From a virus: a stretch of DNA of 64,000 nt. Below are positions 20,428 through 58,611 of this stretch, piece after piece. The notes beneath the pieces were generated by a model. It made no database searches. It saw nothing but the letters and a program-made list of their open reading frames with translations, and was not told where the DNA came from. The DNA lies in the IMG/VR virus record IMGVR_UViG_3300045988_115054, positions 61,443 to 125,442 of that record. One strand, 5' to 3'. Positions within the stretch are counted from its first letter, which is position 1. Every line of letters starts with the position of its first letter. A program made the position numbers and the translations under genes.

Positions 20428-21378
20428 ATGGCAGCAACACAGTTTGAAGTTATTAAAACAGCAAACAATAATAACGCAGAAGAACCTGAAGCAAAGATCA
20501 AAAGACGTAAGGACGGAAATCCTAAATGGACTCGATCTAATAAACAAAAAGGCGTATCATCTTTAGTGTATCCAATTAAGAACAAAGAAAAATTTGCAGC
20601 CTTTAATGCATATTTTAGAGACCAGATTGATAAATCGTACACAGAGTACAAACGATATGTAGCTGCCAGAAACAATCTTTTGGTTACAGTTGGAAACAAT
20701 ACAGCATATCGTATCTCTGATATTGTTAGACTCAAATGGGGCGATTTATTGGAAGATAAGACTCGTAAGCAGGAAAAGAAAACAAAGAAATTTAGAACTG
20801 TATACTTTAACGACTTAGTAACCGAAGCAGTGGATATTTTCTTTGAAGCTGTTGCAGGAACTAAATATGATGTCAAGGTTGATGGAGAAGTTCCAATGGA
20901 TGATTATGTTTTTGGAACATGTAAGTCTGGATCAGGACACATGACTGAAGCAAATGCCTTGGATTTTGTTAAAAAAGGTGCTAAAGCAGTTGGAATTGAG
21001 GATAACATTGGTACACATACATTGCGAAAAAACTTTGTATACTGGACACTTGTTGATCATAAGGATGATCAGAATGTATTGTATACACTTATGAGATTAC
21101 TGAATCATAGTAGTCCTGCAATGACGTTTTTATATGCTACAATTACAGAAGAGGAAACACATGTATTGTTCGATGATATTGCTCAGACGTATAAGGATAT
21201 TATCAGCGGAGCATTTAACGGATTAAAGGAAAATGTTATTAATGTGAGTTATGATAGAGTTATGGAGATTATCAAGTGTGCTTATGAGACTGGCAAAGAT
21301 GATGCAGATCAAGATGATAGAGTACATGAGGACAATATGCAGGCACTAAAAGAGTTGCTGGAAGGAGTTATTTTATGA
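20428..21378 (+). CDS. tyrosine recombinase / integrase family protein
   Basis: All three catalytic-domain signatures are visible: TAYRISDIVRLKWGDL (Arg I), GTHTLRKNFVYW (HxxR) and LLNHSSPAMTFLYAT (nucleophile Tyr). An AGAGGAGAG RBS is present. Confidence 0.7.
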   Translation: MAATQFEVIKTANNNNAEEPEAKIKRRKDGNPKWTRSNKQKGVSSLVYPIKNKEKFAAFNAYFRDQIDKSYTEYKRYVAARNNLLVTVGNNTAYRISDIVRLKWGDLLEDKTRKQEKKTKKFRTVYFNDLVTEAVDIFFEAVAGTKYDVKVDGEVPMDDYVFGTCKSGSGHMTEANALDFVKKGAKAVGIEDNIGTHTLRKNFVYWTLVDHKDDQNVLYTLMRLLNHSSPAMTFLYATITEEETHVLFDDIAQTYKDIISGAFNGLKENVINVSYDRVMEIIKCAYETGKDDADQDDRVHEDNMQALKELLEGVIL

Positions 21379-22121
21379 TATTTGTAACAGGAGATACGCA
21401 TGGTGATTGGATGACTCGATTAAACAGTCGTTCTTTTCCTGAAGGCGTAGGGCTGACTAAGGATGATTATGTAATCATTTGTGGAGATTTTGGATTGTGG
21501 CATGACACAAAAGAAGAAAAATATAATCTGGAATGGTTAGACAGTAAGCTATTTACTACACTGTTTGTATGCGGAAACCATGAGAATTATGATCGGTTAT
21601 ATAAATATCCTGTAGAAGAATGGAATGGAGGAAAGGTTCATAAGATTCGTGATTCTATTTTTCATCTCATGCGAGGGCAGATATTTGATATTCAAGGCAA
21701 GAAATTCTTTACGTTTGGCGGAGCTAGTTCTCACGATGTTCAAGATGGAATTTTAGAGCAAGACGATCCAAGAATTAATGAATGGCATAGAGATTATGAT
21801 AAAATGTTTCGCATTAATCATGTGAGCTGGTGGAAAGAGGAGTTGCCTTCAGAAGAAGAAATGACAGAAGGCATGATGAATCTGAAGCAGAATGGATCGC
21901 AAGTGGATTATATAATTACACATAGTCCATACACATCTGCATTACGTCAAATTGATCAAGGATCAGGAGTGTATAAAACAGATATATTGACGGATTATTT
22001 GCAAGAGATTAAAGAATCTGTTGAATATAAAAAGTGGTTCTTTGGACATATGCATGTGAACCAGAACTTTCCAGGAGATAATGCGATTGCAATTTACGAA
22101 CAAATTATTAGGATTTTATAG
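21375..22121 (+). CDS. calcineurin-like metallophosphoesterase (Ser/Thr phosphatase-like)
   Basis: The GDTHGD, GDFGLW and GNHENY motifs are in canonical order. The start overlaps the recombinase stop (ATGA). Confidence 0.7.
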   Translation: MIFVTGDTHGDWMTRLNSRSFPEGVGLTKDDYVIICGDFGLWHDTKEEKYNLEWLDSKLFTTLFVCGNHENYDRLYKYPVEEWNGGKVHKIRDSIFHLMRGQIFDIQGKKFFTFGGASSHDVQDGILEQDDPRINEWHRDYDKMFRINHVSWWKEELPSEEEMTEGMMNLKQNGSQVDYIITHSPYTSALRQIDQGSGVYKTDILTDYLQEIKESVEYKKWFFGHMHVNQNFPGDNAIAIYEQIIRIL

Positions 22122-23063: not shown

Positions 23064-23077
23064 AAATGGAGAATATT

Positions 23078-24094
23078 ATGAATAATAAAGAATTGATACA
23101 AAATTATATAGATTCTCACGTATCAGAATCACGTCGCCCAACATGGAATTGGTTATTAGATTCCGATATTGCGGACGACAATGAATCTGGGTTAACGTAT
23201 GCACCAGGTACAATCCAAGAGGCTATATTATCAGATACTAGAGGTAAAAAAACCAAAAGTATGAATTCTATTAAAAAAAGATATGACCAGCTCGTTAAAC
23301 TATATACTTATGCATATGAACAAAATTACATTAAATATAATCCATTTATTAATGATAAATTTATAAACTTGCAATTAGCAGTTGATATATATTTTTCAAA
23401 TAGAGTTAATGTTAATTATGTTACACCAGATAAAATAAATGCGTTTATTTCGAATCTGATGTCGTGCAATGCATCAGCCGATACCAAATTGAATACTAGA
23501 TTTCACATTGTGAGTTTATATAATGGGATAAATGGAAAGGAGTTAAGAAATCTAAAATTCTCAGATATTAATCAAAATGATTTAACAATTCTTGGGAAGC
23601 CAGTCTCCAAAGATTTTATCGAGACATTGAATGAATATAAATTGAAAATGGGAGATACGAATATATATGATGATTTTGTATTAATACCACGAAAAAAATG
23701 TAATAATATAGAAGAATATCAAGCAGAGCAAAAGAGGATCTATAATAATGTGCAGTCTCAATTAGAATTAACTGGTAACACTTTATCTTATGAGAAATTG
23801 ACAACCATTGATGTTATTAATTCTGGTTTTATACAATATTTAAAATCTAAAATGGATATCAAGGCAATTGCAGATTTATATTATATTAAATCAAAAGAAG
23901 GAATCGCACGATCTATAATCGCACGTCAATTTAGTGATATTGCAATTGATTTTTATTATAATTATTATATATCATATAGAATAAAAAAGAAACAATTTAG
24001 TGATCGTCAAACGGTAATTGGTAAAAGTATTGGTTACCTATATAAGGACGAGGACTATAAGAATTATCGTGTACATCAAATAATGGCAGAATAA
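23078..24094 (+). CDS. tyrosine-recombinase-like protein with degenerate catalytic residues (DNA-binding?)
   Basis: TRFHIVSLYNGINGKELRNLKFSDIN resembles the recombinase region ytGlRisEl.aLkwsDid but lacks the Arg I residue. No HxxR or Tyr signature is seen. The gene is AT-rich. Confidence 0.35.
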   Translation: MNNKELIQNYIDSHVSESRRPTWNWLLDSDIADDNESGLTYAPGTIQEAILSDTRGKKTKSMNSIKKRYDQLVKLYTYAYEQNYIKYNPFINDKFINLQLAVDIYFSNRVNVNYVTPDKINAFISNLMSCNASADTKLNTRFHIVSLYNGINGKELRNLKFSDINQNDLTILGKPVSKDFIETLNEYKLKMGDTNIYDDFVLIPRKKCNNIEEYQAEQKRIYNNVQSQLELTGNTLSYEKLTTIDVINSGFIQYLKSKMDIKAIADLYYIKSKEGIARSIIARQFSDIAIDFYYNYYISYRIKKKQFSDRQTVIGKSIGYLYKDEDYKNYRVHQIMAE

Positions 24095-39971: not shown

Positions 39972-40176
39972 ATATGACTAAGAAACAAAATAAAAATTTT
40001 AAAATATTTGGTGTGTTTTGGAATATAAAAATATTCTGCTCAAATAGTTTTTGAGTACGCCAAAAGTGATGTTTGTTATAGCACTCACTAAAATCTATGT
40101 TATTTTGTCGGATTTATGTTATTTGGGGGTTTGGCAACTATAAAAAATAACAGAACTAAAGGAATTTAAACAAAAA

Positions 40177-40344
40177 ATGAAAACAAGACAAGAACGTAAA
40201 CAGGAAATAAAACGATTCTTTGATCGGTTGAATCCAGAAGAATTGGACAAGCTGTTAGAAAGAAATGGAATCAATGACAAAGAGTCCAAAGAGGCTCTTG
40301 CATATAGAAATATTAAAGAAGAAATTGAGAAAGGAGAGATATAA
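40177..40344 (+). CDS. hypothetical small protein (55 aa)
   Basis: The ORF is in frame to a TAA that overlaps the next ATG (TAATG). The RBS is weak. Confidence 0.3.
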   Translation: MKTRQERKQEIKRFFDRLNPEELDKLLERNGINDKESKEALAYRNIKEEIEKGEI

Positions 40345-40649
40345 TGAACCACTTCTTATATATTGAATCACGGGAAGAAGAGAATACATCCATCGATTCT
40401 AAACGTGTTTTATTGAATGAAGAAAATTACAAACATATTATTTCATCATTAGATCATTATCCACCGACGGCAGACGAAGTTAAGAAAGCAATTTGTATTT
40501 TGACGGGACGATTGATCTACAGAAGCGTTTGGAATATGGAATCTGATATTGATAGTTTAAATATGAGTTTATCCCCGCCAAAAGAAATGACGGTTGCAGA
40601 AATCGAAAAAGAACTTGGTTACAAAGTAAAGATTGTAAAGGAGAAATAA
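40344..40649 (+). CDS. hypothetical protein
   Basis: This is a 101-aa ORF with a GAAAGGAGAGA RBS. Confidence 0.45.
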   Translation: MNHFLYIESREEENTSIDSKRVLLNEENYKHIISSLDHYPPTADEVKKAICILTGRLIYRSVWNMESDIDSLNMSLSPPKEMTVAEIEKELGYKVKIVKEK

Positions 40650-40952
40650 ATGGCAAAAAAGAAAAAGAATGGAATACCTTTTGAAATGGCAATGCAAGAT
40701 ATGAAAATAAATCCAAATAAAATATATCGACGTAGCGTTTGGAAGAAAACAAAAACGAGTTATGATTATGTGTTTATGATGTGTGAGGAAGAACAACAGG
40801 AGATTATTCCATTCGACCAAAGATATAAAATGAAACGGCTTTTATGTAGAGATCAAAATGGAGTTATAACACTAGGATGGTTACCTACCCAAGAAGATAT
40901 TCTTGCAAATGATTGGATTGAACACGGGTGGGATTTTGAAAGTAAGAGGTGA
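40650..40952 (+). CDS. DUF2829-like (Tad2-like) small protein, copy 1
   Basis: The C-terminal GWLPTQEDILANDWIE and N-terminal MAMQDMKINPNKIYRRSVW match the DUF2829 pattern F.eA..a...Gk...R..W ... W.ps..DllaeDW.i. Confidence 0.55.
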   Translation: MAKKKKNGIPFEMAMQDMKINPNKIYRRSVWKKTKTSYDYVFMMCEEEQQEIIPFDQRYKMKRLLCRDQNGVITLGWLPTQEDILANDWIEHGWDFESKR

Positions 40953-40959
40953 TGATTAA

Positions 40960-41247
40960 ATGAACTTTGTAGAAGCAATGGCTGCAATAAAAACACATAA
41001 AACAACTATAAAAAGACGCACATGGGGTGAACAATCATATCTAAAAATTTATTCGTCCGAACTAGCTAATGATTATTTTGAGTGTAATGGTATGGGAGAA
41101 TATAAAACAGATTCAATTATTTTCTTATTTGATGGAGAAAATGCAGAAGTTTGGGTTCCTATTGCAGAAGATATATGTGCAGATGATTGGGAAATATATG
41201 TTGAACCAATTAATGAAAGTAAGCAGACAAAGGAGAAAGAAGAATGA
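40960..41247 (+). CDS. DUF2829 family protein (Tad2-like anti-Thoeris candidate), copy 2
   Basis: MNFVEAMAAIKTHKTTIKRRTWGEQSY...VWVPIAEDICADDWEIYVEP is a close match to the DUF2829 N- and C-terminal signature blocks. A GGTGATGA RBS is present. Confidence 0.65.
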   Translation: MNFVEAMAAIKTHKTTIKRRTWGEQSYLKIYSSELANDYFECNGMGEYKTDSIIFLFDGENAEVWVPIAEDICADDWEIYVEPINESKQTKEKEE

Positions 41248-42191
41248 AATGTTTTTATCACGTTGATCAAGACGGAATTGTATCTGGTTTTTACGTTAGA
41301 AAAGCCTGTGAACAGCGAGGTTTAGCATTTGAACCAGAGGACTTCCGAAAAATTAATTACGGCATGAAATTCCCGTTTCATGACATTAAACAGGATGAAT
41401 TCGTATTTATCGTAGACTACAGCATTGAGCCAGAAGAGCTGTGGCAGTTGTTAAGTATTACAAAGAATGTGTTTTGGATCGATCATCACCAATCTACGAT
41501 TGAAGCGTATAAAGATTTTAAGTGCGATGTAAAAGGAATTCGGATCACTGGAGCAGGTATCTCAGGAGCGAATTTGACATGGTTGTACTTTAAATATATA
41601 TGTGACGAAGATTGGGAACAAATTGAGAGGACGGATGAGAAATATGTGACCTCTTTATTGCGAGAATTCTCTAAAAATACTCCTCAGTTGGCAAAATATA
41701 CAGCTCTGTGGGATACATTCTCGTGGAGTAAAAAATCAGAAGAATATGTTAAGGCGTTCCATTATGCATTTGAGTCATATGATTTTGATGTCATGAACTA
41801 TTTATTGGATAAGTTAAATGGAGATATGGGATTATGTGAAGCTGAGAGATTAACTGATTATATGATTGAAGATGGTTTAGGAATTAAGGATTATCTGTCT
41901 TCTACTGCAAAACAGTACCTTAGAGCATATGGTTTTGAAACCACCTTTGAAGGACATAAAGTCTATGCAATCAATCGAGCATTAATCAATTCTGATTTCT
42001 TCGAATCTATTGACGCTTCAAAATATGATATGTTCATTGGTTTTTCGTTCAATGGTAGTATGTGGGAATATCAGTTACGATCCGCAGAACAGGATAAAGT
42101 AAATGTGTATGAGCTTGCTGTGAAATATGGTGGTGGCGGTCATCCAAATGCAGCTGGGTTCAGATGTGATAAATATGTATTAGGAGTGTGA
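41244..42191 (+). CDS. DHH/DHHA1 phosphoesterase, NrnA-like (nanoRNase / pAp / cyclic-oligonucleotide phosphodiesterase family)
   Basis: The DHH motifs YHVDQDGIVSG (HxDxDG), IVDYS and WIDHHQST (DHH) are present. The DHHA1 motif YGGGGHPNAAGF (GGGH) is also present. At 315 aa the size matches NrnA. Confidence 0.7.
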   Translation: MKCFYHVDQDGIVSGFYVRKACEQRGLAFEPEDFRKINYGMKFPFHDIKQDEFVFIVDYSIEPEELWQLLSITKNVFWIDHHQSTIEAYKDFKCDVKGIRITGAGISGANLTWLYFKYICDEDWEQIERTDEKYVTSLLREFSKNTPQLAKYTALWDTFSWSKKSEEYVKAFHYAFESYDFDVMNYLLDKLNGDMGLCEAERLTDYMIEDGLGIKDYLSSTAKQYLRAYGFETTFEGHKVYAINRALINSDFFESIDASKYDMFIGFSFNGSMWEYQLRSAEQDKVNVYELAVKYGGGGHPNAAGFRCDKYVLGV

Positions 42192-42194
42192 TGT

Positions 42195-42995
42195 ATGTCA
42201 AGGAAAAATACAAGAGAATTTGAACTTGCTTTTAGTAAAAACAGAGATCCAGATTGGGAAGCCGATGTGGAAATTTATAGAAGAAGAAAGTTCGAAGTAG
42301 TGCGTGGTATTTGTCTGGGAGATGAGTTTGCTGAAATTGAGTCTTTAGAATACAAAAATTGTGACGAGTTAGATGAAATGTATTATCGTTTTAATTATAA
42401 TTTAAAAATGCTTATGAAGTCTTATTTGCATGAATATACAGATTATGTGCCAATCGAAACAATGCATATTACATCTCCTGCAATATTGTGTTGTGATGAA
42501 ATTGTATTAAAAAACGGTGAGAAAATTTCTATTGATAACATATGTATTGATAAATCAAATGGCAATGAAGTTTATAAATTATATTCTAATAGTACATATA
42601 CAGATGATGTATATTATGAATTTACTAAAGCATTAGTTTATGAATTGGCTAGTAAAGATGTTTGCAAGGCTATACATATAATGAAAGATATAATGGACAA
42701 AGCGTATATAAAAGCAAGAAATGAACGAAGCATACATCCTTTTATTAGCCACTTGTTTAACGACCCTCCAATTCCATGTATTAAAAATAAATATTCTATA
42801 CATGATTTAATGGGTACATTAAAATGCAGTGGTGATATTTATGAAGAAATAAAAAAAGAAGTCCCAAATGCTATAGATATGATTGTGCCTCATCCTGGAA
42901 GACATGCAGAGTATTATTTTGGGTTAGATTATACAGATGAAGTAGAGCAATTTATTAAAGAACAGGAGGCTAAGAAATGTGAAGAAACTAAATGA
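42195..42995 (+). CDS. hypothetical protein
   Basis: This is a 266-aa ORF with an AGGAGTGTGATGTATG RBS and start. Confidence 0.5.
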   Translation: MSRKNTREFELAFSKNRDPDWEADVEIYRRRKFEVVRGICLGDEFAEIESLEYKNCDELDEMYYRFNYNLKMLMKSYLHEYTDYVPIETMHITSPAILCCDEIVLKNGEKISIDNICIDKSNGNEVYKLYSNSTYTDDVYYEFTKALVYELASKDVCKAIHIMKDIMDKAYIKARNERSIHPFISHLFNDPPIPCIKNKYSIHDLMGTLKCSGDIYEEIKKEVPNAIDMIVPHPGRHAEYYFGLDYTDEVEQFIKEQEAKKCEETK

Positions 42996-43512
42996 TGAAC
43001 AGCGAAAGCTGATTGAAGATAATTATTCTTTGATTTGGCATTTACATGAAAAATATTTTACAAAGTTTACAGATTTTGATACATATATGGATCTTGGTCG
43101 TATGGCAATTTGTAAAGCAGCATTAAAATGGGACGAGTCTAAAGGAACTTTTGGTACATATCTCTTCTGGGTATTACGTTCAGAAGTGAATCAATATTAT
43201 ACAAAATGGCACAGACCAACAGAAAAAATGAATAGGAATGCTGAATCGTTAGATACGCCATTGGCAGGATACGAACCAGAAGATGATATTACAATCGGAA
43301 CAACACTGATGAGTAAAGATAATGTAGAGGATGAGGTGCTTACAAAGGTACATTTTCAAAATGAGTTTGATAAATTGGCACCGAGAAATAAAAAGATTAT
43401 CACGTTGAAGCAAAAAGGTTTAACACAAAGACAAATTGCAAGTCAGCTTGGAATCACTCATCAGTGGGTTAGTCAAAATATTGTACAGTTTAAGAAAGCA
43501 TTATGTGGATAA
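42979..43512 (+). CDS. phage sigma-70 family sigma factor
   Basis: Region 2-like LIWHLHEKY...LGRMAICKAALKWDESKGTFGTYLFWVLRSEV is present. The region 4 HTH reads LKQKGLTQRQIASQLGITHQWVSQNI. Confidence 0.65.
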   Translation: MKKLNDEQRKLIEDNYSLIWHLHEKYFTKFTDFDTYMDLGRMAICKAALKWDESKGTFGTYLFWVLRSEVNQYYTKWHRPTEKMNRNAESLDTPLAGYEPEDDITIGTTLMSKDNVEDEVLTKVHFQNEFDKLAPRNKKIITLKQKGLTQRQIASQLGITHQWVSQNIVQFKKALCG

Positions 43513-43525
43513 AAGAGGTGAGATC

Positions 43526-44359
43526 ATGACAATTGAAGAAGTAAAGGATTACATAAACTCGTCTACAGAGTATGACTTTTTGCGAGATTATCCGCACAAA
43601 ATCGCTTTTCTCACGTTAGGTGGAAGTTATGCCTACGGAACAAACACAGAGGATTCTGACATTGATTTACGTGGTGTTTTCCTTAGTGATAAAAGAGAGA
43701 TTTTGTTGAACAATAATCAAAACAATCTTGAGAAGACCGATGATCGTAAAGACGTTGATACTGTGCTACATTCGCATATTAAGATGATCAACATGCTTGC
43801 TAAGGGTAATCCTACGTTTTTAGAGTTGCTATACTTTGCACCAGATCGCTATTTGTATGTATCCGATATTGGTATGGAGTTGATCAAAAATAGAGATATG
43901 TTCTTATCTAAGAGAGTTTATCATGCATATAAAGGATATATATGTGATTGCCTGACTCGAACGAGTTTTAAGTATTATAAAAATAAAGATTCAGAGAAAG
44001 AAAAGCAAAAGGCGGAACGATACGCTAATAAATCAATGATGCACGCAGTTCGATTATTGTTACAGGGCATTGAATTATTGCATAACGGAACAATGTTAGG
44101 ATCTATGGATGACATAGGAAAAGATCTTGTAAAGATCAAAGAAGGATATAATAGTACGCATAAAACATATAGATTTGGCAAACACAATGAGCACACAGAA
44201 TATTTCCCAAATCAGTCATACGATGTTTTTATTGAAGGATTACTTTATCAATTTGATTATGATTATATGAATACTGATTTGCCAGACGAACCAGACTGGG
44301 ATCGTATCAATAACTTCTTGATGACAACAAATGAACGAATTGTGAGAGGAATGGTGTAA
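43526..44359 (+). CDS. Pol-beta-superfamily nucleotidyltransferase (PF10127/RlaP-like)
   Basis: IAFLTLGGSYAYGTNTEDSDIDLRGVFL is the hG[GS]-x-YG-x5-SDxDxxGV signature. An AGAGGTGAGATCATG RBS and start are present. Confidence 0.6.
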   Translation: MTIEEVKDYINSSTEYDFLRDYPHKIAFLTLGGSYAYGTNTEDSDIDLRGVFLSDKREILLNNNQNNLEKTDDRKDVDTVLHSHIKMINMLAKGNPTFLELLYFAPDRYLYVSDIGMELIKNRDMFLSKRVYHAYKGYICDCLTRTSFKYYKNKDSEKEKQKAERYANKSMMHAVRLLLQGIELLHNGTMLGSMDDIGKDLVKIKEGYNSTHKTYRFGKHNEHTEYFPNQSYDVFIEGLLYQFDYDYMNTDLPDEPDWDRINNFLMTTNERIVRGMV

Positions 44360-44361
44360 AA

Positions 44362-44631
44362 ATGTATGTAAAGATTGGAGACGAAATTGCTTTTCATCTT
44401 GGCGAATGCTTAGAAGAATTTGTTGAATCTTGCAGGATAACTCCTTATCAGCTTGCAAGTAAAATTGGCATGGATGTTGATTATGTTCAAGGGTTGATTG
44501 ACGGATCACAAAGTGTTACAAAAGAATTTGCGACAACAATGGCAAACCATTATGGGTTTGCTGATGATGGGCAGTTCTGGTTAAATTTGCAAGAAACATT
44601 TGATAAGAAAGTAGGTGATAGGGATGTTTAA
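44362..44631 (+). CDS. HigA/XRE-like HTH protein (addiction-module antidote-like), translationally coupled to the nucleotidyltransferase
   Basis: RITPYQLASKIGMDVDYVQGLIDGSQSVTKEFATTMANHYGFADDGQFWLNLQETFD matches the HigA/VapI pattern, including the terminal fWlNLQ..yd. The ATG lies 2 nt after the upstream stop. Confidence 0.55.
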   Translation: MYVKIGDEIAFHLGECLEEFVESCRITPYQLASKIGMDVDYVQGLIDGSQSVTKEFATTMANHYGFADDGQFWLNLQETFDKKVGDRDV

Positions 44632-45163
44632 ATTAATAAAACGCCCACGTTCTGATAACGATAAATATACTAAATATGATGTTGTGCTTGATAAAGAATA
44701 TACTGTAGAAGAATTTATTGATGCGATTGCAGATGGAAGAAATGGAACGCATGGTCAAATCACAATAAAAAATGATAAAAAAGCCATTGAATCACTTGTC
44801 TATAATATCGAGAGTATTGATTATAGACATTGTATACTTCAAAATGCTGAAGAAAAAATTAAACAAGTATGGGCAGATGGTAGCTGGTTAAAAATCAATT
44901 ATACTATCTTGCTTGAAAACAAAAAGGAAACACAAAAAGGTGCGCTCAGATTCATTGTTAAGAAACCAAATGGAGAAGAATCAGTGGTTGTTATTTTTAG
45001 GAACAAGTCAGATGGCACATATTCATTTGTTAATTTGACCAAAGAGCATATTTGTTCATGTAAATTTAAAACAATCGATGAAGCCATTCAGGATATGAAT
45101 GACCGACTAAAGAAAGGATTGATTGAGTCCTATGTTATGAAAGGAGAAAGAAATAGTGAGTGA
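44615..45163 (+). CDS. hypothetical protein
   Basis: This is a 182-aa ORF that overlaps the HTH gene by 17 nt. Confidence 0.45.
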   Translation: MIGMFKLIKRPRSDNDKYTKYDVVLDKEYTVEEFIDAIADGRNGTHGQITIKNDKKAIESLVYNIESIDYRHCILQNAEEKIKQVWADGSWLKINYTILLENKKETQKGALRFIVKKPNGEESVVVIFRNKSDGTYSFVNLTKEHICSCKFKTIDEAIQDMNDRLKKGLIESYVMKGERNSE

Positions 45164-45626
45164 CGTATTTCAGATTTATTTAGCAGGCGGTATGCAGGAT
45201 TTATCGTTTGAAGAGCAGAATGCTTGGAGAGAAAGAATTTGCAATCAAATTATTGCTATGCGTAGGATTCTTAATGTTAATATGAAAGAAGTTAATATTA
45301 TTAACCCTGTTGATTATTACAATTTTCAAACAGAGTTGCATGATACAGAAAAAGAAGTAATGAGATTTGATATAAATTTTGTTAGAAATAGTGATCTTGT
45401 TGTAGTAAATGCGAATGATCCGAAAAGCATTGGTACATCTATGGAGATTGCAATTGCATATGAACGTCATATTCCTGTACTGGTTTTGAATACAGAAAAG
45501 AAAAGATTACATGCTTGGTGGGTGCAAATGTCTGACAAGATATTTGACGATGAGAAAAAATTATGTACATATATATATGATTTTTATCTTAAGATGGGTC
45601 ATTGTAGTATTCGAGCATGGGTGTAA
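45156..45626 (+). CDS. nucleoside 2-deoxyribosyltransferase-like protein
   Basis: IYLAGGMQ... and DLVVVNANDPKSIGTSMEIAIAYERHIPVLVL follow the NDT-family pattern iYlAG......D.vva.ld....d.GT..EiG.A...g.Pv..l. Confidence 0.55.
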   Translation: MSDVFQIYLAGGMQDLSFEEQNAWRERICNQIIAMRRILNVNMKEVNIINPVDYYNFQTELHDTEKEVMRFDINFVRNSDLVVVNANDPKSIGTSMEIAIAYERHIPVLVLNTEKKRLHAWWVQMSDKIFDDEKKLCTYIYDFYLKMGHCSIRAWV

Positions 45627-45787
45627 ATGCAATGATATAAAATAGGGATTTGAGGCGAAATGAAAGGAGTTGAAACATTATCACGGCAGAAAAACAAGGT
45701 AAGTTTATTATTTTCCATCTGGATGATGGTAAAACTTGCAAATATGATTTATCAAATGGTGATTGCTATGGCAAGAGCGGCAGGAAA

Positions 45788-46822
45788 GTGAAAGCTTTGA
45801 ACAATATTCTGTCTGGACATTCAGCTGATGAATTGGATAAATTGTTTGTGTCCGATCCACATTATGCAGAGTTTCTAAAATATGTAAATTGGCGAAGAAA
45901 TTGTGAAATGGGAAGAACTACATGGGGCTTCATTGATTATAATTTAGGAACTTTGTTTGAATATGCAAGTAAGTATTCTATGTGCGAGCAGTTCTTTGCT
46001 ATAGGGTTTACACACAAACAAGTCACAGAAGATTTCAAATATTCAATTAATGAAGTACCAAAATGGTTGAGAAATTATTGTCTTGGTGTGAAGAATAGAC
46101 GATTGTTAAGTAATGATTTTGTTGATTTTTATAAGATGTATCCAGATTATGTACAAACGATTTTACAGACAGAGTATATGACATTAACTAAAGAATATTT
46201 AATAAATTTCTTTGAGGATAATCATAGATATCGTTTTACGAAAATTTTGGAGGCTTTAAATCAGGATTATGGCTATAATCTTGCAGATGTGTTTGTTTAT
46301 ATAGATAGAATAATTACATTTGAAGCTGCTACCAATAGTATAAATTGGTTACTCGGAGAATTGCGTGATTATGCCCGTATGATGGACGCAATCAGTCATA
46401 AATTTGATAGATATCCAAGACATTTCAAAACAACAATGGATATTGTCACAAGAAATTACAAAAGATTACAAAAAGAATTTTCGGAAGAAGTCTTCAAGAA
46501 ACGTATTAATAAAGAATACGAATTTACATATAAAGATCTGAGATTCTTTTATCCAAATTGTACTCAAGATATTAAGGATGAAGCAGTGCAACAAAATAAT
46601 TGTGTAGCAAGTTACATAGATCGAGTCATTGATGGCGAATGTCATATCATGTTCTTGAGAAGAGTAAAAGAGCCAGACAAATCTTTAGTGACGATTGAAA
46701 TACAAAATGGACGAATAGTACAAGCACTGCAAAGATTCAATGATCCTCTAACCGCTGATCAACAAGAAGCGGTCGATGCATGGAATGAACATTTTAGCAA
46801 GAAAGGTAAGGTGGCAGCATGA
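45788..46822 (+). CDS. hypothetical protein (344 aa)
   Basis: This is a long ORF. The C-terminal block NCVASYIDRVIDGECHIMFLRRVKEPDKSLVTIEI is possibly PcfJ-like, but that is unverified. Confidence 0.5.
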   Translation: MKALNNILSGHSADELDKLFVSDPHYAEFLKYVNWRRNCEMGRTTWGFIDYNLGTLFEYASKYSMCEQFFAIGFTHKQVTEDFKYSINEVPKWLRNYCLGVKNRRLLSNDFVDFYKMYPDYVQTILQTEYMTLTKEYLINFFEDNHRYRFTKILEALNQDYGYNLADVFVYIDRIITFEAATNSINWLLGELRDYARMMDAISHKFDRYPRHFKTTMDIVTRNYKRLQKEFSEEVFKKRINKEYEFTYKDLRFFYPNCTQDIKDEAVQQNNCVASYIDRVIDGECHIMFLRRVKEPDKSLVTIEIQNGRIVQALQRFNDPLTADQQEAVDAWNEHFSKKGKVAA

Positions 46823-47358
46823 TCAATATTCATGAATTAACTACAGATCATAAGATTAAATTAAAGAAGCCAATGGGATGCTTCGATAATCTTGGCGAGG
46901 TATGTGAGATTGTTAAGATTGATACAGATGAAAATGTTATTAATTTTAGATTTGGTGTAGATGGAGTACATCTTGGCGTGATGTCAGGAGATGAATTGGA
47001 AAAATATTTTGATGTTATTGAACCAACTGTTATTCCTGATGACTATGAGTGGCATCCATATGGTTTTATTGAAGATAATCAGGTTATGTATCATGCTCTT
47101 AAGAATGGTAGTATTTCGATGGAGACTACATATGATGGAGATGGAACAATTTCTGTTGTGTATGAGCACCCTGAAAATCCTTATCGGCAAATTAAAAATG
47201 GGCAAAGAGGTAGGTTTTATTGTGAAGATTTGAAAGTAGCATTTTTTAAATTAAAGAAAACATACTATGACAAATTATATGAAGATATACAAGAAGAAGT
47301 CATGTTGGATTTTGTTAAAAATAAAGACAAATTAGAGCCAGTTGAAGTCAATGAATAG
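46819..47358 (+). CDS. hypothetical protein
   Basis: This is a 179-aa ORF whose start overlaps the upstream stop. Confidence 0.5.
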   Translation: MINIHELTTDHKIKLKKPMGCFDNLGEVCEIVKIDTDENVINFRFGVDGVHLGVMSGDELEKYFDVIEPTVIPDDYEWHPYGFIEDNQVMYHALKNGSISMETTYDGDGTISVVYEHPENPYRQIKNGQRGRFYCEDLKVAFFKLKKTYYDKLYEDIQEEVMLDFVKNKDKLEPVEVNE

Positions 47359-47367
47359 TAGGATGCA

Positions 47368-47571
47368 ATGATAGATAATGTTAAATTAACAATCAGAATA
47401 TTTTCAATTGCTGTGTGCGTATTGTTGTATGTAGCTGCTTGGGTTTGGTTCATAATTACTGCTCGTGATGACTCGGACAATTGGGATTCACCTGTCCATG
47501 CGGTATTTCTTTTCTGGATTATGTTACATGTAGTATTCTTAATTGAGCTAATTCTATGGGCTTGGTGCTAG
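47368..47571 (+). CDS. small two-TM membrane protein
   Basis: FSIAVCVLLYVAAWVWFII and VFLFWIMLHVVFLIELILWAW are hydrophobic helices. Confidence 0.4.
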   Translation: MIDNVKLTIRIFSIAVCVLLYVAAWVWFIITARDDSDNWDSPVHAVFLFWIMLHVVFLIELILWAWC

Positions 47572-47586
47572 AAAGAGGTGATAAAG

Positions 47587-47985
47587 ATGGGCGATTTCAA
47601 AGTTGGAGACGAAGTGTATTTTGCTTGGTACGGTGAACCATATACTGTTAAGTCTGGAATTATTACGGAGATTAAATGTCTTGGCGATCTAACATATATA
47701 ATGATACAAGACAGTATAACACATGGTTTATATATGGTTCTTTTAGAAGAGATATATCGCACTGAATCAGAAATAAAAGCGGTTCTAAAACGAGAGTTTT
47801 ATGGCAAGGTAAATGAGGTTAAAAAAGACATTCATACCTTAGAAGATTTGCTGAAATTTATGTATGACAATGGTCTCGTAGATTGGTCATCACCACATAT
47901 AAATGGTTGGCAGACAGATTGGGTAAGTCGTGTTGCAGTACGAGAACTGGCAAAAGAAATTTGCGGTATTGAGTTAGGAGAGTAA
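47587..47985 (+). CDS. hypothetical protein
   Basis: A GAAAGAGGTGATAAAGATG RBS and start precede the ORF. Confidence 0.45.
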   Translation: MGDFKVGDEVYFAWYGEPYTVKSGIITEIKCLGDLTYIMIQDSITHGLYMVLLEEIYRTESEIKAVLKREFYGKVNEVKKDIHTLEDLLKFMYDNGLVDWSSPHINGWQTDWVSRVAVRELAKEICGIELGE

Positions 47986-47990
47986 TGTAA

Positions 47991-48395
47991 ATGAACAAGC
48001 TTTATCAATACAATGGAATGTATTGTCGAGCACAAAACCAATGTGATAATAAATGGTTTGTCGGAGCATATATCGGTAATGAGTGGTTGTTATTCCCAAG
48101 ATGTGATAATGCTACTCTGTACGGATGTCAAATTAAGCCAGAGTCTATCTGTAGATCAACAGGCAGAGAAAATGAGTTTGAATATGATGTAGTACAGATG
48201 GTCGACGATGACGAAGACGTATATTTGATTATTTATAATGATGAAGATTTGGCGTGGCAGATGTTATCTGTTTATGGTTCTGATATGATTGATTTAGGAG
48301 AAATTAAACCAGATCAATATGTGAAACTTGGCAATATCAAAGAAGATGATTATTGGAGAAAGGAATGGGAAAGACAGAGTGAAAAAAGAAAATAA
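47991..48395 (+). CDS. hypothetical protein
   Basis: This is a 134-aa ORF. Confidence 0.45.
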   Translation: MNKLYQYNGMYCRAQNQCDNKWFVGAYIGNEWLLFPRCDNATLYGCQIKPESICRSTGRENEFEYDVVQMVDDDEDVYLIIYNDEDLAWQMLSVYGSDMIDLGEIKPDQYVKLGNIKEDDYWRKEWERQSEKRK

Positions 48396-48834
48396 TAAAG
48401 TATTTACATACGGGCAGTTAGAAGAATTAAGAGATAGTTTAGTAGTTCCAATGAGTGAGGTTGAATCAAATAAGCAAGATCATATACTTCGAAAATATTA
48501 TAACATATGTAGTTTACTTGATACGTTTCAACTGACGAAACCGCTAGTTGATGAACTAAAATGTCAGCCGATTGCAGCGAGATATTTTGTTTTTTCGCTA
48601 TGGAACGAATTGGTAAATTCGTGTATTAATGCTTGCGACACACTGACTGTGAACGACATAGAGAATCGAGATTCCAAAAACCTATTATCTACTAAAATCA
48701 ATGCGGCACAGTACATCCATGTATTAAATGATATGATTTCCGTAAATGATTATACAACAATTCAAGATGAGGCGTTGCAGTTTGCAATTGATACAATTAA
48801 GGAGAAATATAATGGAGAAAGAAAAGAAAAGTAA
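48375..48834 (+). CDS. hypothetical protein (start uncertain, possibly GTG)
   Basis: The ORF-track ATG at 48328 overlaps the previous gene. A GTG at 48375 is preceded by purine-rich GGAATGGGAAAG. Confidence 0.3.
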
Positions 48835-55755: not shown

Positions 55756-57349
55756 CATTTTGAACGATTGCAGAGGACTTTTTGAAGATGAGGTATTTGA
55801 AATTATCATGCAGGAGCGTGGTATTGATGATCCAGAACATTTTCTAAATCCTACGGAAGATGATTTACTTCCTCTTGATGACTTAAAAAATATTGATAAA
55901 GCATATAAGCTTTTGGTAGATGCAGTATACAAAGATAAACGTATTGCAGTACATTTTGATACAGATACTGACGGAATCACATCTGGTGCCATTATGACAC
56001 GATATTTAAAAAACATGACAGAAAATCCAGTAGATGTATACATTAACCGAGGCAAACAGCATGGATTAGTAAATCAGGACATTGCTAAGTTTTATGGGTA
56101 TGATTTACTGATTGTCGTTGATAGTTTAGATAAAGACGAGACTCAGTATAAGGATTTAAAAGAAACAGGAGTTGATGTGATTGTGTTAGACCACCATGCC
56201 ATCGATCCAGATGTTCCTTATGACAACTATTGCACATTAGTTTCTTCTCAGAGAGAATATGAAAATCCACAGCTATCTGGCGCAGGTGTTGTTTGGAAGT
56301 TTTGCAAGTATATTGATGAGCAGAATGGTACAGATTATGCAGATGATTTGGTCGATCTAGCAGGCGTTGGGCTGATTGCAGATATGATGGATATGAGAGT
56401 AATGGAGAATCGTTACATTGTATCCGAAGCTTTGAAAGAAATTAGAAATCCTGCGATTAAGAAGATTATTGGTGGATTTGAATTCAACAGCACAGCAGTT
56501 GCTTTTAGTATTGCACCGTTGGTTAATGCTGCAAACAGAATGGATCAGAATGAAATTGCTCTAAATGCTTTCCTTGAAGATGACAATAAAAAGTTACGAG
56601 GATATATTAAACAGTTAAAGCAATGCAAAGAAGACCAAAATGAAGAGGTCGCACAGCTGATGCCAATGATTGCAGAGCAGTGTGAGGCTCAGAGTGATAA
56701 AAAGATGATCACAACTTTTATTGACACTGATTATGGTATTTCTGGATTAATTGGGAACAAGTTACTTGAAAAATATCAGAAACCGATTCTTGTGCTAAAG
56801 AAAAATGAAGATACATACGCAGGATCTATGCGAGCTGTTGGTGTCAAAGACTTTAGACAGATGTGTAATGATAGTCAATTGGCTGAAGCGAATGGACATG
56901 AACTTGCCAGTGGTATTGAAATTCCTAGAAAGAACTTTACCGAGTTCACCTCTTATATAGAAGAAACTCTTCCAGATAAACCAGAAGATACAACAGTTGA
57001 TGTCGATATTATGCTTGATATTTCAGACATTACAAGAAAAATGGTTGACACGATTAAGAAAATTGATCGTATTTCTGGGCAGGGATTTAAGCCTGTAAGA
57101 GTTTATATTGAAGAGATTGACGACTATGACATTGGTCAGATGAGCAATTATAAACATCTTGTCCTGAAACCATGTAACAATGATAAATTGTGGATCATTA
57201 AATGGAACTATGATGGATCGTTTGAGGATATGGAAGACCATTCTATGATGAATGATGAGTTTTGTGCAGTTACTACACTTGATTGCGGATTCTTTGGAAG
57301 AAAGTTTGTGCTGAAAGCTGTGTGTGATTCACTTGAAGAGGTGGGATGA
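55730..57349 (+). CDS. recJ: RecJ-like DHH-family ssDNA exonuclease
   Basis: DHH motifs I (VHFDTDTDGITSG) and III (VIVLDHHAIDP) are present. The size and domain order resemble RecJ. Confidence 0.6.
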   Translation: MKTSKKKYNILNDCRGLFEDEVFEIIMQERGIDDPEHFLNPTEDDLLPLDDLKNIDKAYKLLVDAVYKDKRIAVHFDTDTDGITSGAIMTRYLKNMTENPVDVYINRGKQHGLVNQDIAKFYGYDLLIVVDSLDKDETQYKDLKETGVDVIVLDHHAIDPDVPYDNYCTLVSSQREYENPQLSGAGVVWKFCKYIDEQNGTDYADDLVDLAGVGLIADMMDMRVMENRYIVSEALKEIRNPAIKKIIGGFEFNSTAVAFSIAPLVNAANRMDQNEIALNAFLEDDNKKLRGYIKQLKQCKEDQNEEVAQLMPMIAEQCEAQSDKKMITTFIDTDYGISGLIGNKLLEKYQKPILVLKKNEDTYAGSMRAVGVKDFRQMCNDSQLAEANGHELASGIEIPRKNFTEFTSYIEETLPDKPEDTTVDVDIMLDISDITRKMVDTIKKIDRISGQGFKPVRVYIEEIDDYDIGQMSNYKHLVLKPCNNDKLWIIKWNYDGSFEDMEDHSMMNDEFCAVTTLDCGFFGRKFVLKAVCDSLEEVG

Positions 57350-58611
57350 TTATGGCAGGAAAAGAAGTATTTTGTTCAGTCTGCGGTTTATCATCTACTT
57401 TGGACGGACATTTTTGGAAAGAAAAGAAGTTGTGCAACAGACACAATATGCAGTTAGAAAAACATGGAAAACTGTTAGATAAAGATATAGTGATCCCTAA
57501 AAAGAGGCATAGATGGACTCCAGAAGAAGAAGTCAGATTAGAAGAGTTGTATAAACAAGGAGTTTCTTTTGAAAAAATTAGTAAACAAATGAATCTATCC
57601 GTGGCAGCCATAGCGGCTCGAAGTCGTCATTTGAATCTTGGCAATAAGTATATGAGGTCTAATAATCCTAATTTTAAAGCCACATATCAGGATTATGATT
57701 GGTGTTATGAAAGATATGTTGTTAAGGGAATGACTCATCAAGAAATGGCAGATGAATGTGGTGCCTCGTTAAGAGTTATTCAGAAATGGTGTTCTGAAGT
57801 TCATAAATTAAATTGTTGGACTTTCAAAAACAATAAGACATTAACCGATAAACAGTATCAAATTATTTTATTTGGCACATTAGGAGATGGGCATATTGAT
57901 AAGAGAGAGACGCAACCTTTGTATATTGAATGTCATTCTATAGCAGAAAAGGATTACGTGTTTTGGAAATATGAAGAATTAAAAGATTTATGTAACTCTG
58001 AGCCAAAGTATTATGAAGGTGGCTATAAAGATTTTGGTTCTGGTACAAAGTATTGGTGTAAACCACATTACAGATTTGAGACAAGAATTATTAATCAATT
58101 GAAGGACATTCGAGACATGCCAAGAATCAATAAGATTTGGCAATTGAATGAATTTGGATTATCTCTTCATTGCTTAGACGATGGATGCAGAGGTAAATCA
58201 GCGTGGGAATTATGTTTGGCAGAATATACTCAGCAAGAAATTGATTTATATATCAAGCTGTGTAAAAAGAGATTTGGGTTATATGCTAAACAGCAGACAG
58301 ATAAAAGATATATAAGATTTGATTCAGATTCAAGTAGAATTATTGATCAAATTATTTTAAACAATATTCCTAATTCGCTTGACATTATCAAAAAGAAGAT
58401 ATTAGAAAACGATAAAATTTCTAAAAAAGTAAGATACATTTATGTTGTCATGCAGAACGGAGAACAGATTGGTTTATCTACATATTGTAGATCTCATGGT
58501 ATTCCATATGAAAAGACAAGAAAATATGTCATTGAGCACAATATCTCTCGAATTCAAGAAGCTGATCTACTAAATAGATTAAAAGCTGGAGGATTAATGA
58601 ATGCGGTATAA
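57346..58611 (+). CDS. free-standing homing endonuclease (LAGLIDADG-like, two motifs) with an N-terminal Zn-finger/HTH region
   Basis: LFGTLGDGHIDKRE and LHCLDDGCRGKS are LAGLIDADG-like. The N-terminus reads CSVCG...CNRHNMQLEKHG. The gene overlaps both flanking genes by a few nucleotides. Confidence 0.45.
   Translation: MIMAGKEVFCSVCGLSSTLDGHFWKEKKLCNRHNMQLEKHGKLLDKDIVIPKKRHRWTPEEEVRLEELYKQGVSFEKISKQMNLSVAAIAARSRHLNLGNKYMRSNNPNFKATYQDYDWCYERYVVKGMTHQEMADECGASLRVIQKWCSEVHKLNCWTFKNNKTLTDKQYQIILFGTLGDGHIDKRETQPLYIECHSIAEKDYVFWKYEELKDLCNSEPKYYEGGYKDFGSGTKYWCKPHYRFETRIINQLKDIRDMPRINKIWQLNEFGLSLHCLDDGCRGKSAWELCLAEYTQQEIDLYIKLCKKRFGLYAKQQTDKRYIRFDSDSSRIIDQIILNNIPNSLDIIKKKILENDKISKKVRYIYVVMQNGEQIGLSTYCRSHGIPYEKTRKYVIEHNISRIQEADLLNRLKAGGLMNAV

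Follow-up and report, generated by a model that had tools for sequence, protein, structure and literature searches.

Does a nucleotidyltransferase (NTase) gene followed almost without a gap by the gene of a small helix-turn-helix (HTH) protein make a toxin-antitoxin (TA) module? The question is raised by positions 43526-45626 of a 64,000-nucleotide stretch of viral DNA (hereafter the window; positions 61,443 to 125,442 of IMG/VR record IMGVR_UViG_3300045988_115054), where four genes encode an NTase of the Pol-beta superfamily, a HigA/VapI-like HTH protein, a protein termed unk182 and a protein with the fold of nucleoside deoxyribosyltransferase (NDT) and DNPH1, here called NDT-like. A preliminary description of the locus had compared the first two genes to the AbiE and MenT modules and had considered all four as one nucleotide-based module. 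Profile searches with PF10127, PF05014 and the HigA models supported all three domain assignments of that description, with matches well above chance expectation. Nevertheless, we consider it probable that the locus holds four functionally separate accessory genes, led by an RlaP-type repair enzyme, at the end of a ten-gene block in a ~160-kb phage.

The nucleotidyltransferase and its distant homologues

Profile search revealed that the NTase matches the RlaP family (PF10127) with an E-value of 3.7e-24 over profile positions 14-248 of 249 (86.2 bits; cut-off 23), and matches phrog_388 with an E-value of 3.6e-42. The motif GGSYAYGTNTEDSDIDLRGV (GGSYAYG-x5-SDIDLRGV) at residues 32-51 (nt 43619-43678) is exactly the PF10127-type pattern GGSxAYG-x5-SDxDLRGV that had been noticed earlier. 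The catalytic positions are G33-S34 (43622-43627), D45 and D47 (43658-43666) and D78 (43757-43759); across 20 aligned homologues of 38-79% identity, D78 is invariant, and 90% or more retain G33, S34, D45 and D47. In its architecture, the NTase domain at the N-terminus precedes a helical domain, in which a C-terminal helix segment is conserved. It resembles the RlaP family in the strong full-length match, in the GS motif with three aspartates and in being phage-borne; RlaP homologues occur in 299 phage records, and in cultured Bacillus and Mycobacterium phages the gene stands by itself. However, at 277 residues it is shorter than its gut-phage relatives of ~340 residues, from which it differs by the absence of a ~65-residue insert. 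A search of the PDB by sequence or profile returned no match to the structure of PfRlaP.

The family PF10127 was renamed RlaP, and a 2025 preprint describes two Pseudomonas members, PfRlaP and PaRlaP (PMC12776372). According to this preprint, RNA was the only cell macromolecule labelled, and both enzymes extend RNA by one or two nucleoside monophosphates (NMPs) at 3'-OH ends, whereas 3'-phosphate ends are not used. They favour the broken end of a cleaved-tRNA mimic, and full-length tRNAs in total RNA also receive NMP. The same preprint names three strictly conserved catalytic aspartates, lists NrdC.11 of phage T4 as a member and states that both enzymes were purified after over-expression in E. 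coli. In addition, a jumbo-phage review presents RlaP as the commonest phage NTase restoring bases lost from RNA ends, which tracks RNA ligases (PMC7824862).

Searches for toxin families gave no AbiEii/DUF1814 (PF08843) match for the NTase in Pfam at E≤0.1 and no match to the AbiE/MenT models of PADLOC at E≤0.01. The type VII TA system MntA-HepT was also tried and rejected, as NF047752 matched just the NTase core, with 24.8 bits (cut-off 60), and no HEPN match was found among the neighbours. Judged by its sequence, the NTase is classified as an RlaP enzyme and not as an AbiEii/MenT toxin. With the latter it shares the Pol-beta superfamily core, the predicted transfer of NMP to RNA or tRNA 3' ends and a small DNA-binding gene adjoining the NTase gene. 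By contrast, it belongs to another family, its HTH neighbour is of the Xre/HigA type rather than the AbiEi/MenA type and lies 3' of the NTase, and the pair is not obligate. The likeness to an AbiE/MenT architecture is not supported: the motif aligns with the PF10127 catalytic core, whereas no AbiEii/MenT profile is matched. Similarly, the proposed modification of tRNA or RNA 3' ends agrees with the chemistry of RlaP enzymes, but the toxic purpose does not, as the characterised enzymes are proposed to repair RNA instead of poisoning it.

The neighbours of distant homologues were searched within 3 kb at 137 RlaP loci, comprising 53 from IMG/VR viral contigs and 80 from GTDB genomes, with RlaP homologues of 26-48% identity, and four others (L108, L109, L118 and L119). 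None of the 137 loci has a HigA-like open reading frame (ORF), and neither an NDT-like nor an unk182-like gene was found in the 57 loci from IMG/VR and the four others. A CCA-adding tRNA nucleotidyltransferase (PolyA_pol, HD and tRNA_NucTran2_2 domains) is encoded near RlaP in 60 of the 137 (30 of these 57 and 30 of the 80 GTDB loci), its gene usually overlapping the RlaP stop by 8-11 nt. In gut phages, these two genes form a conserved unit for tRNA-end repair. The GTDB loci further contain three Pnkp-ligase, four DHH and one NDT neighbours. Homologues of the DHH phosphoesterase that is encoded three genes upstream of the window NTase stand beside RlaP or RlaP-CCA at 7 of the 137 loci, in unrelated phages and metagenome-assembled genomes, with the order RlaP-CCA-DHH in L192, L197, L255 and L257 and RlaP-DHH in L234. 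As RlaP is unable to use 3'-phosphate ends, a healing phosphoesterase is required, and we infer that the DHH enzyme is a candidate for this RNA 3'-end healing partner. Altogether, the neighbours of RlaP homologues fit RNA- or tRNA-end repair and not a TA pair.

Judged by their sequence motifs, further RlaP neighbours look like Thg1, Metallophos, macro and ARH proteins. At L109, a protein that looks DUF2829/Tad2-like by eye in its N-terminus is encoded directly after RlaP, and a Pfam-annotated Tad2-like gene lies ~4 kb further downstream.

Reassortment and layout of the four genes

Comparison of 54 related loci from ~160-kb phages, 50 of which have full flanks, revealed a strongly mosaic region. 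Among these 50, the NTase alleles diverge to ~98%, 78% and 54% identity while the HTH protein stays near 90%, and hence the two do not co-vary. unk182 and the NDT-like protein each have two or three allele classes that are freely combined with the NTase alleles; for example, NTase allele A occurs 15 times with NDT allele A and 16 times with NDT allele C. These associations are given as contingency counts; large Cramer's V values came from a single co-deletion cell. Moreover, single relatives have lost genes. In L045 and L052 the HTH gene is absent and an intact NTase gene runs directly into unk182, and L043 has lost unk182, NDT, PcfJ and the next gene but kept HTH. An extra 112-aa gene, with no profile match and not present in the window, is inserted between unk182 and NDT in 31 of 49 related loci (e.g. 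L005, 6632-6970). Because they reassort and are lost independently, the four genes are separately exchangeable accessory genes and not the single module envisaged before. The two losses of the HTH gene, together with its absence from the distant loci, also contradict a conserved NTase-HTH pairing; the arrangement of an RlaP gene followed by a HigA-like gene was seen in this phage lineage only.

The NTase alleles of the window, L032, L045 and L052 (5001-5831) are identical in the first ~60 and the last ~27 residues, whereas the helical middle/C-terminal domain has only 5-25% identity per 20-residue block, although the phages are otherwise near-identical. This pattern looks like the exchange of a specificity cassette, a feature in which the window NTase departs from the RlaP family at large. 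By analogy with the PfRlaP structure, the variable helical domain would form the RNA-binding cleft.

The window has 33% GC and is essentially a one-strand stretch of a large (~160-kb) gut phage. The four genes are the last of a tight ten-gene plus-strand block (40344-45626; Table 1), in which the gaps range from -17 to +13 nt. The order is an unknown gene, two Tad2-like genes, DHH/DHHA1, another unknown gene, the sigma factor, NTase, HTH, unk182 and NDT-like. The block is bounded by a 372-nt gap upstream and a gap of 160-170 nt downstream, and the sigma factor gene ends 13 nt before the NTase gene.

Table 1. Genes of the ten-gene block with an assigned family, unk182 and the first gene beyond the block
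Feature	Position (nt)	Strand	Length (aa)	Remarks
Tad2-like gene (PF11195, Thoeris anti-defence 2-like), first of tandem	40650-40952	+		E 2.6e-8
Tad2-like gene (PF11195), second of tandem	40960-41247	+		E 8.2e-12
DHH/DHHA1 phosphoesterase	41244-42191	+	315	phrog_4771 E 3.5e-36; Pfam DHH and DHHA1 weak
Sigma-70/ECF-type sigma factor	42979-43512	+	177	TIGR02937 E 2.4e-17; phrog_351 E 7.6e-27
RlaP-family (PF10127) Pol-beta NTase	43526-44359	+	277	ATG start
HigA/VapI-like Xre-type HTH protein	44362-44631	+	89	
unk182	44624-45163	+	179	ATG start
NDT/DNPH1-fold N-glycosidase-like protein	45156-45626	+	156	GTG start
PcfJ-like protein	45788-46822	+		PF14284 E 8.6e-20; beyond the gap that closes the block

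The ORF coordinates confirmed the layout proposed for the four genes, with a 2-nt gap between the NTase stop and the HTH start (TAA-AA-ATG) and overlaps of 8 nt both between HTH and unk182 and between unk182 and NDT-like. The sequence AGAGGTGAG, which resembles a ribosome-binding site (RBS), precedes the NTase ATG. An RBS-like purine run is found at each of the three junctions among the four genes, with AAGGAG ahead of the NDT-like GTG. The start of unk182 was placed at ATG 44624 rather than GTG 44615, because its homologues begin at MFKL. The block is likely co-transcribed, given its tight packing and the absence of plus-strand terminator-like sites from 40000-48500. However, 48 of the 94 neighbouring plus-strand gene pairs in the window overlap or lie at most 20 nt apart. 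Tight spacing is the norm in this genome, and likely co-transcription says nothing specific to the four genes. The translational coupling proposed for NTase and HTH is compatible with the 2-nt gap but does not distinguish this pair. The two gaps flanking the block were searched for operator-like repeats and gave just short AT-rich matches with no clear meaning.

The whole cluster was found in an isolate assembly of Anaerostipes sp. Marseille-Q3525 (L431, JAGTTT010000027.1), comprising two Tad2-like genes, DHH, an unknown gene, the sigma factor, RlaP, HTH, unk178, NDT and PcfJ. Pieces of it are present in Faecalibacillus intestinalis (L433), and no close relatives were found in GTDB species genomes. 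Judging from these two isolate assemblies, the host range is probably gut Firmicutes (Anaerostipes, Faecalibacillus), and Anaerostipes sp. Marseille-Q3525 is a candidate host for experiments.

The proteins encoded downstream of the nucleotidyltransferase

The HTH protein matches the HigA model TIGR02607 with an E-value of 3.5e-10 and 39.6 bits, which lies under the equivalog cut-off of 47.7 and denotes family-level similarity only. It also matches phrog_1381 (plasmid antitoxin with HTH) with an E-value of 3.8e-10. Among solved structures, the best match is VapI (PDB 3trb, E-value 8.6e-7), with which it shares the xPGE and FWLNLQ stretches, followed by 3cec (E-value 5.8e-4) and, more weakly, 4mcx and 6chv. 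The HigA/VapI-like assignment made earlier is upheld by these matches. Its nearest annotated plasmid relatives are HigA antitoxins of 32-38% identity. Like the members of this group (TIGR02607; 3trb, 3cec, 4mcx), it has a single Xre-type HTH, an N-terminal HxGE and a C-terminal FWLNLQ stretch, in 89 residues compared to ~95-105. It differs in scoring under the NCBIfam cut-off, in lying in an early-type block of a phage and in the absence of a RelE/HigB-type gene from that block. Whereas a typical plasmid homologue has a RelE/ParE gene upstream, the neighbouring and antisense ORFs around the HTH gene had no family match to a RelE/ParE/HigB-type toxin. We classify it on these similarities as an orphan HigA/VapI-like DNA-binding protein.

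In being toxin-less and placed in a phage accessory region, the HTH gene resembles the orphan antitoxin-like genes of phages, e.g. those against DarTG (PMC11825919, PMC11481870). These known ones are enzymes or mimics with a demonstrated target, whereas such a role of the HTH protein is putative. unk182 was considered as its toxin and rejected: L045 and L052 keep unk182 without HTH, L043 keeps HTH without unk182, none of 72 loci of N-domain homologues of unk182 has a HigA-like neighbour, and unk182 has no RelE-like fold.

unk182 itself had no match in Pfam, PHROGs, NCBIfam or PADLOC. A profile search against 1.84 billion cluster representatives yielded 987 relatives, and since each of them matches either the N-terminal or the C-terminal half alone, unk182 joins two independent phage domains in one fusion protein. 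Of these, the N-domain (residues ~1-100) is variable and the C-domain (residues ~105-175) nearly invariant. The N-domain family consists of stand-alone proteins of ~100 residues that share the pattern GDCT..YDV.LDKEYTV.EF...EWG...A.GGWS.MDY (L359-L430). In gut phages of 30-60 kb, their genes often lie between those of the terminase large subunit and the portal. The C-domain belongs to a separate family of ~65 residues, e.g. a 63-aa protein of Acinetobacter phage ME3. Neither half matched a Pfam or PHROG function or gave a meaningful structural match, and unk182 flags two abundant, widespread phage domain families that lack annotation. On a 6.7-kb Logan contig, protein P0235 joins the N-terminal ~170 residues of the DHH protein to the C-domain of unk182; this chimera is probably a natural deletion of unk266, the sigma factor, the NTase, the HTH protein and the unk182 N-domain.

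The NDT-like protein matches PF05014 with 33.5 bits (gathering cut-off 28.8). Its AlphaFold model (AF2) has a predicted local distance difference test score of 86.9, and Foldseek search revealed that it most resembles NDT 7m5h, human DNPH1, BcmB and MilB, with E-values of 9e-6 to 1e-4 and template-modelling scores of 0.55-0.71. The NDT/Rcl-like fold suggested before is in line with these results, whereas the suggested likeness to LOG/SLOG domains is weak (PF18306 LDcluster4, no more than 44 residues matched, at 19.1 bits; cut-off 26.3). The key residues are Y8 (45177-45179), D72 (45369-45371), S91 (45426-45428) and E97 (45444-45446); Y8, S91 and E97 are invariant in 31 homologues, D72 is conserved in at least 90%, and E97 aligns with the Glu of 7m5h. 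The protein has the fold and the Tyr/Asp/Glu triad of DNPH1/Rcl, MilB/BcmB and NDT/PDT, but it is only 14-19% identical to any solved member and its subfamily has an invariant W24-R25 and H119 of its own.

For DNPH1, a published report (PMC10603095) gives Y24/D80/E104 as the catalytic triad and assigns the binding of the 5'-phosphate to S98, which precedes the nucleophile by six residues. S91 of the NDT-like protein occupies this position six residues before E97, where NDT 7m5h has an Asp; the second phosphate-binding Ser of DNPH1 comes from the partner subunit. Because S91 sits at the phosphate-binding Ser position, a nucleotide N-glycosidase is favoured over a nucleoside base-exchange enzyme, and the predicted protein is more likely a (deoxy)nucleoside-monophosphate N-glycosidase than a nucleoside transferase. 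The subfamily is small, with 70 clusters. In other large phages, its members are encoded near thymidylate synthase or upstream of the genes for replication, and neither RlaP nor HTH genes adjoin them.

The surrounding window and the rival readings

The ten-gene block lies in a rightward gene train that starts at 34113 and continues into a replication module at ~50-62 kb, with genes for AAA_24, DnaB, primase, a RecJ-like DHH protein, a LAGLIDADG protein and Pol III alpha. Divergent from this train, 33745-33963 on the minus strand encodes a 72-aa Xre-type HTH protein, the sole credible minus-strand gene, which together with 33964-34112 likely constitutes a genetic switch region. A tRNA-like element at 33567-33704 (+) scores 46.4 bits with Rfam RF00005 but was not called by ARAGORN. 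Its acceptor, D and T arms are intact, and the anticodon loop is replaced by an AU-rich insert of ~70 nt, which is closed by a 6-bp anticodon stem. The element may represent a tRNA that is interrupted or contains an intron, or else a tRNA-like decoy, and its presence is notable beside a tRNA-end repair enzyme. Two tyrosine-integrase-like genes (20428-21378 and 23066-24094) lie on either side of a calcineurin-like metallophosphoesterase gene (21375-22121, phrog_1649), whose product weakly resembles the phosphatase part of phage Pnkp-ligase. A LAGLIDADG homing-endonuclease-like ORF (57346-58611, +) lies between the RecJ-like DHH and Pol III alpha genes.

The sequences show to which families the proteins belong, that the catalytic residues are conserved and that no linkage of the genes is conserved; the substrates and biological roles given below are inferred. 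The RlaP NTase most likely restores bases trimmed from host or phage tRNAs by host ribotoxins, extending 3'-OH ends that the upstream DHH phosphoesterase may supply. The repaired tRNAs could then be re-ligated or recharged, and the NTase would act as a counter-defence repair enzyme rather than a toxin. The orphan HTH protein may act as a local transcription regulator or an antitoxin-like decoy and would not be needed to neutralise the NTase. The NDT-like protein, like DNPH1 and MilB, most likely removes the base from a (deoxy)nucleoside 5'-monophosphate and in this way edits the nucleotide pool. The ten-gene block as a whole resembles a gathering of genes for counter-defence and host takeover, not one system.

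Several observations weigh against this reading. A repair role in vivo is a proposal even for the characterised RlaP enzymes (PMC12776372). While RlaP homologues adjoin genes for CCA-adding enzymes, Pnkp-ligases and phosphoesterases, Pfam and PHROG scans of 30 larger ORFs of the 64-kb window, together with tblastn, revealed neither an RNA ligase nor a CCA-adding enzyme. The tblastn queries were a phage CCA enzyme and a Pnkp-ligase, and the sole match was a weak one to the Metallophos gene at 21375-22121; the usual repair partner is either missing or encoded in the ~100 kb of the phage outside the window. The HTH gene is retained in 48 of the 50 relatives, always directly 3' of the NTase gene, and a lineage-specific functional tie between the two may exist. 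The choice of nucleotide over nucleoside as the substrate of the NDT-like protein depends on one residue position and a model. In addition, L209 (2552-4050, on a 149-kb uncultured-bacterium contig) has an NDT homologue of the same subfamily that extends 4 nt into the start of a 31%-identical RlaP gene, the one further case of adjacent NDT and RlaP genes that was found. In L112, L340 and L341 a Pnkp-RNA ligase gene lies ~1.5 kb upstream of the NDT gene, and in L338 the NDT gene is ~4 kb from RlaP-CCA. An RNA-repair gene is present within 5 kb in 4 of 34 NDT loci, and together these cases are a hint of a weak link between NDT and RNA repair.

This hint is the starting point for a reading in which the NDT-like enzyme works with RlaP in one pathway, for example by removing a damaged or modified base or by supplying or clearing nucleotides while RNA ends are repaired. 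The L209 overlap, the ligase- and RlaP-CCA-linked loci and the presence of both genes in the same block speak for such cooperation. We regard it as very unlikely, as an NDT gene occurs in just one of the 137 distant RlaP loci, the great majority of NDT loci have no RNA-repair gene nearby, the NDT and NTase alleles combine freely and the known activities of the fold act on free nucleosides or nucleotides rather than RNA ends. In the TA reading, the NTase would be an AbiEii/MenT-type tRNA-modifying toxin and the coupled HigA-like protein its antitoxin, in a TA or abortive-infection module carried by the phage. MenT toxins transfer NMP to RNA 3' ends, the same reaction type as RlaP; toxin genes come first in HigBA modules, the HTH protein is related to HigA antitoxins, and the narrow gap and the retention of the pair in nearly all relatives would suit such a module. 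Yet the toxin-family searches failed, MntA included; two relatives keep an intact NTase gene without HTH, no distant RlaP locus has a HigA-like neighbour, and the alleles do not co-vary. Moreover, RlaP enzymes could be over-expressed in E. coli and favour damaged RNA, and close spacing is normal in this genome. We regard the TA explanation as extremely improbable.

Another reading takes the ten-gene block as a multi-pronged counter-defence set against nucleotide- and RNA-based immunity. The Tad2-like proteins would be signalling-nucleotide sponges, RlaP would rebuild trimmed tRNA ends, and the DHH enzyme would heal 3'-phosphate or cyclic-phosphate RNA ends or degrade cyclic oligonucleotides. 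The HigA-like protein would neutralise or silence host RelE/HigB-type RNase toxins, and the DNPH1-like protein would destroy a defence-made nucleotide. Two Tad2-like genes, DHH, RlaP, HigA-like and NDT indeed stand in one uninterrupted block, within a rightward unit that issues from the divergent Xre-type switch (~33.96-34.11 kb) ahead of the replication genes. The recurrence of DHH beside RlaP or RlaP-CCA elsewhere agrees with the need of RlaP for 3'-OH ends. Orphan antitoxin-like counter-defence genes are known in phages (PMC11825919, PMC11481870), and heavy allele turnover with a cassette-like NTase helical domain is what an arms race predicts. However, a Tad2-like domain match alone is no proof of sponge activity, the Pfam DHH matches are weak, HigA antitoxins are specific to their cognate toxin and the roles are predicted only. 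Since the genes are gained and lost independently, the neighbours in the block would share a similar purpose without forming a system; we think this reading rather unlikely. The anti-defence function raised in the preliminary description is plausible gene by gene but not for a module. A more novel version has 40344-45626 as a coordinated anti-ribotoxin and anti-signal cassette in which DHH would heal the 3' ends of cleaved tRNAs, RlaP would rebuild them, the orphan HigA-like protein would disarm RelE/HigB-type RNases of the host and the DNPH1-like protein, as a new subfamily, would destroy a nucleotide that is defence-made or unwanted. In it, the RNA-binding helical domain of RlaP would be swapped between phage strains like a specificity cassette. 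We hold this version to be distinctly unlikely; if true, it would be the first phage example joining an antitoxin decoy with RNA-end repair.

Returning to the reading of four separate accessory genes, the locus is mostly ordinary, adding new members of known families within a probable counter-defence block. It nevertheless cautions against reading an AbiE/MenT-type module into the mere succession of an NTase and an HTH gene. It flags a small subfamily of the NDT fold that has a phosphate serine like that of DNPH1, and an orphan HigA-like gene as a possible counter-defence factor. The cassette-like variation of the RlaP helical domain in otherwise near-identical phages could guide experiments. 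The case places an RlaP RNA-repair enzyme in a family of gut-Firmicutes phages, and in many gut phages RlaP is operon-linked to a CCA-adding enzyme, often with DHH, which fits its need for 3'-OH ends.

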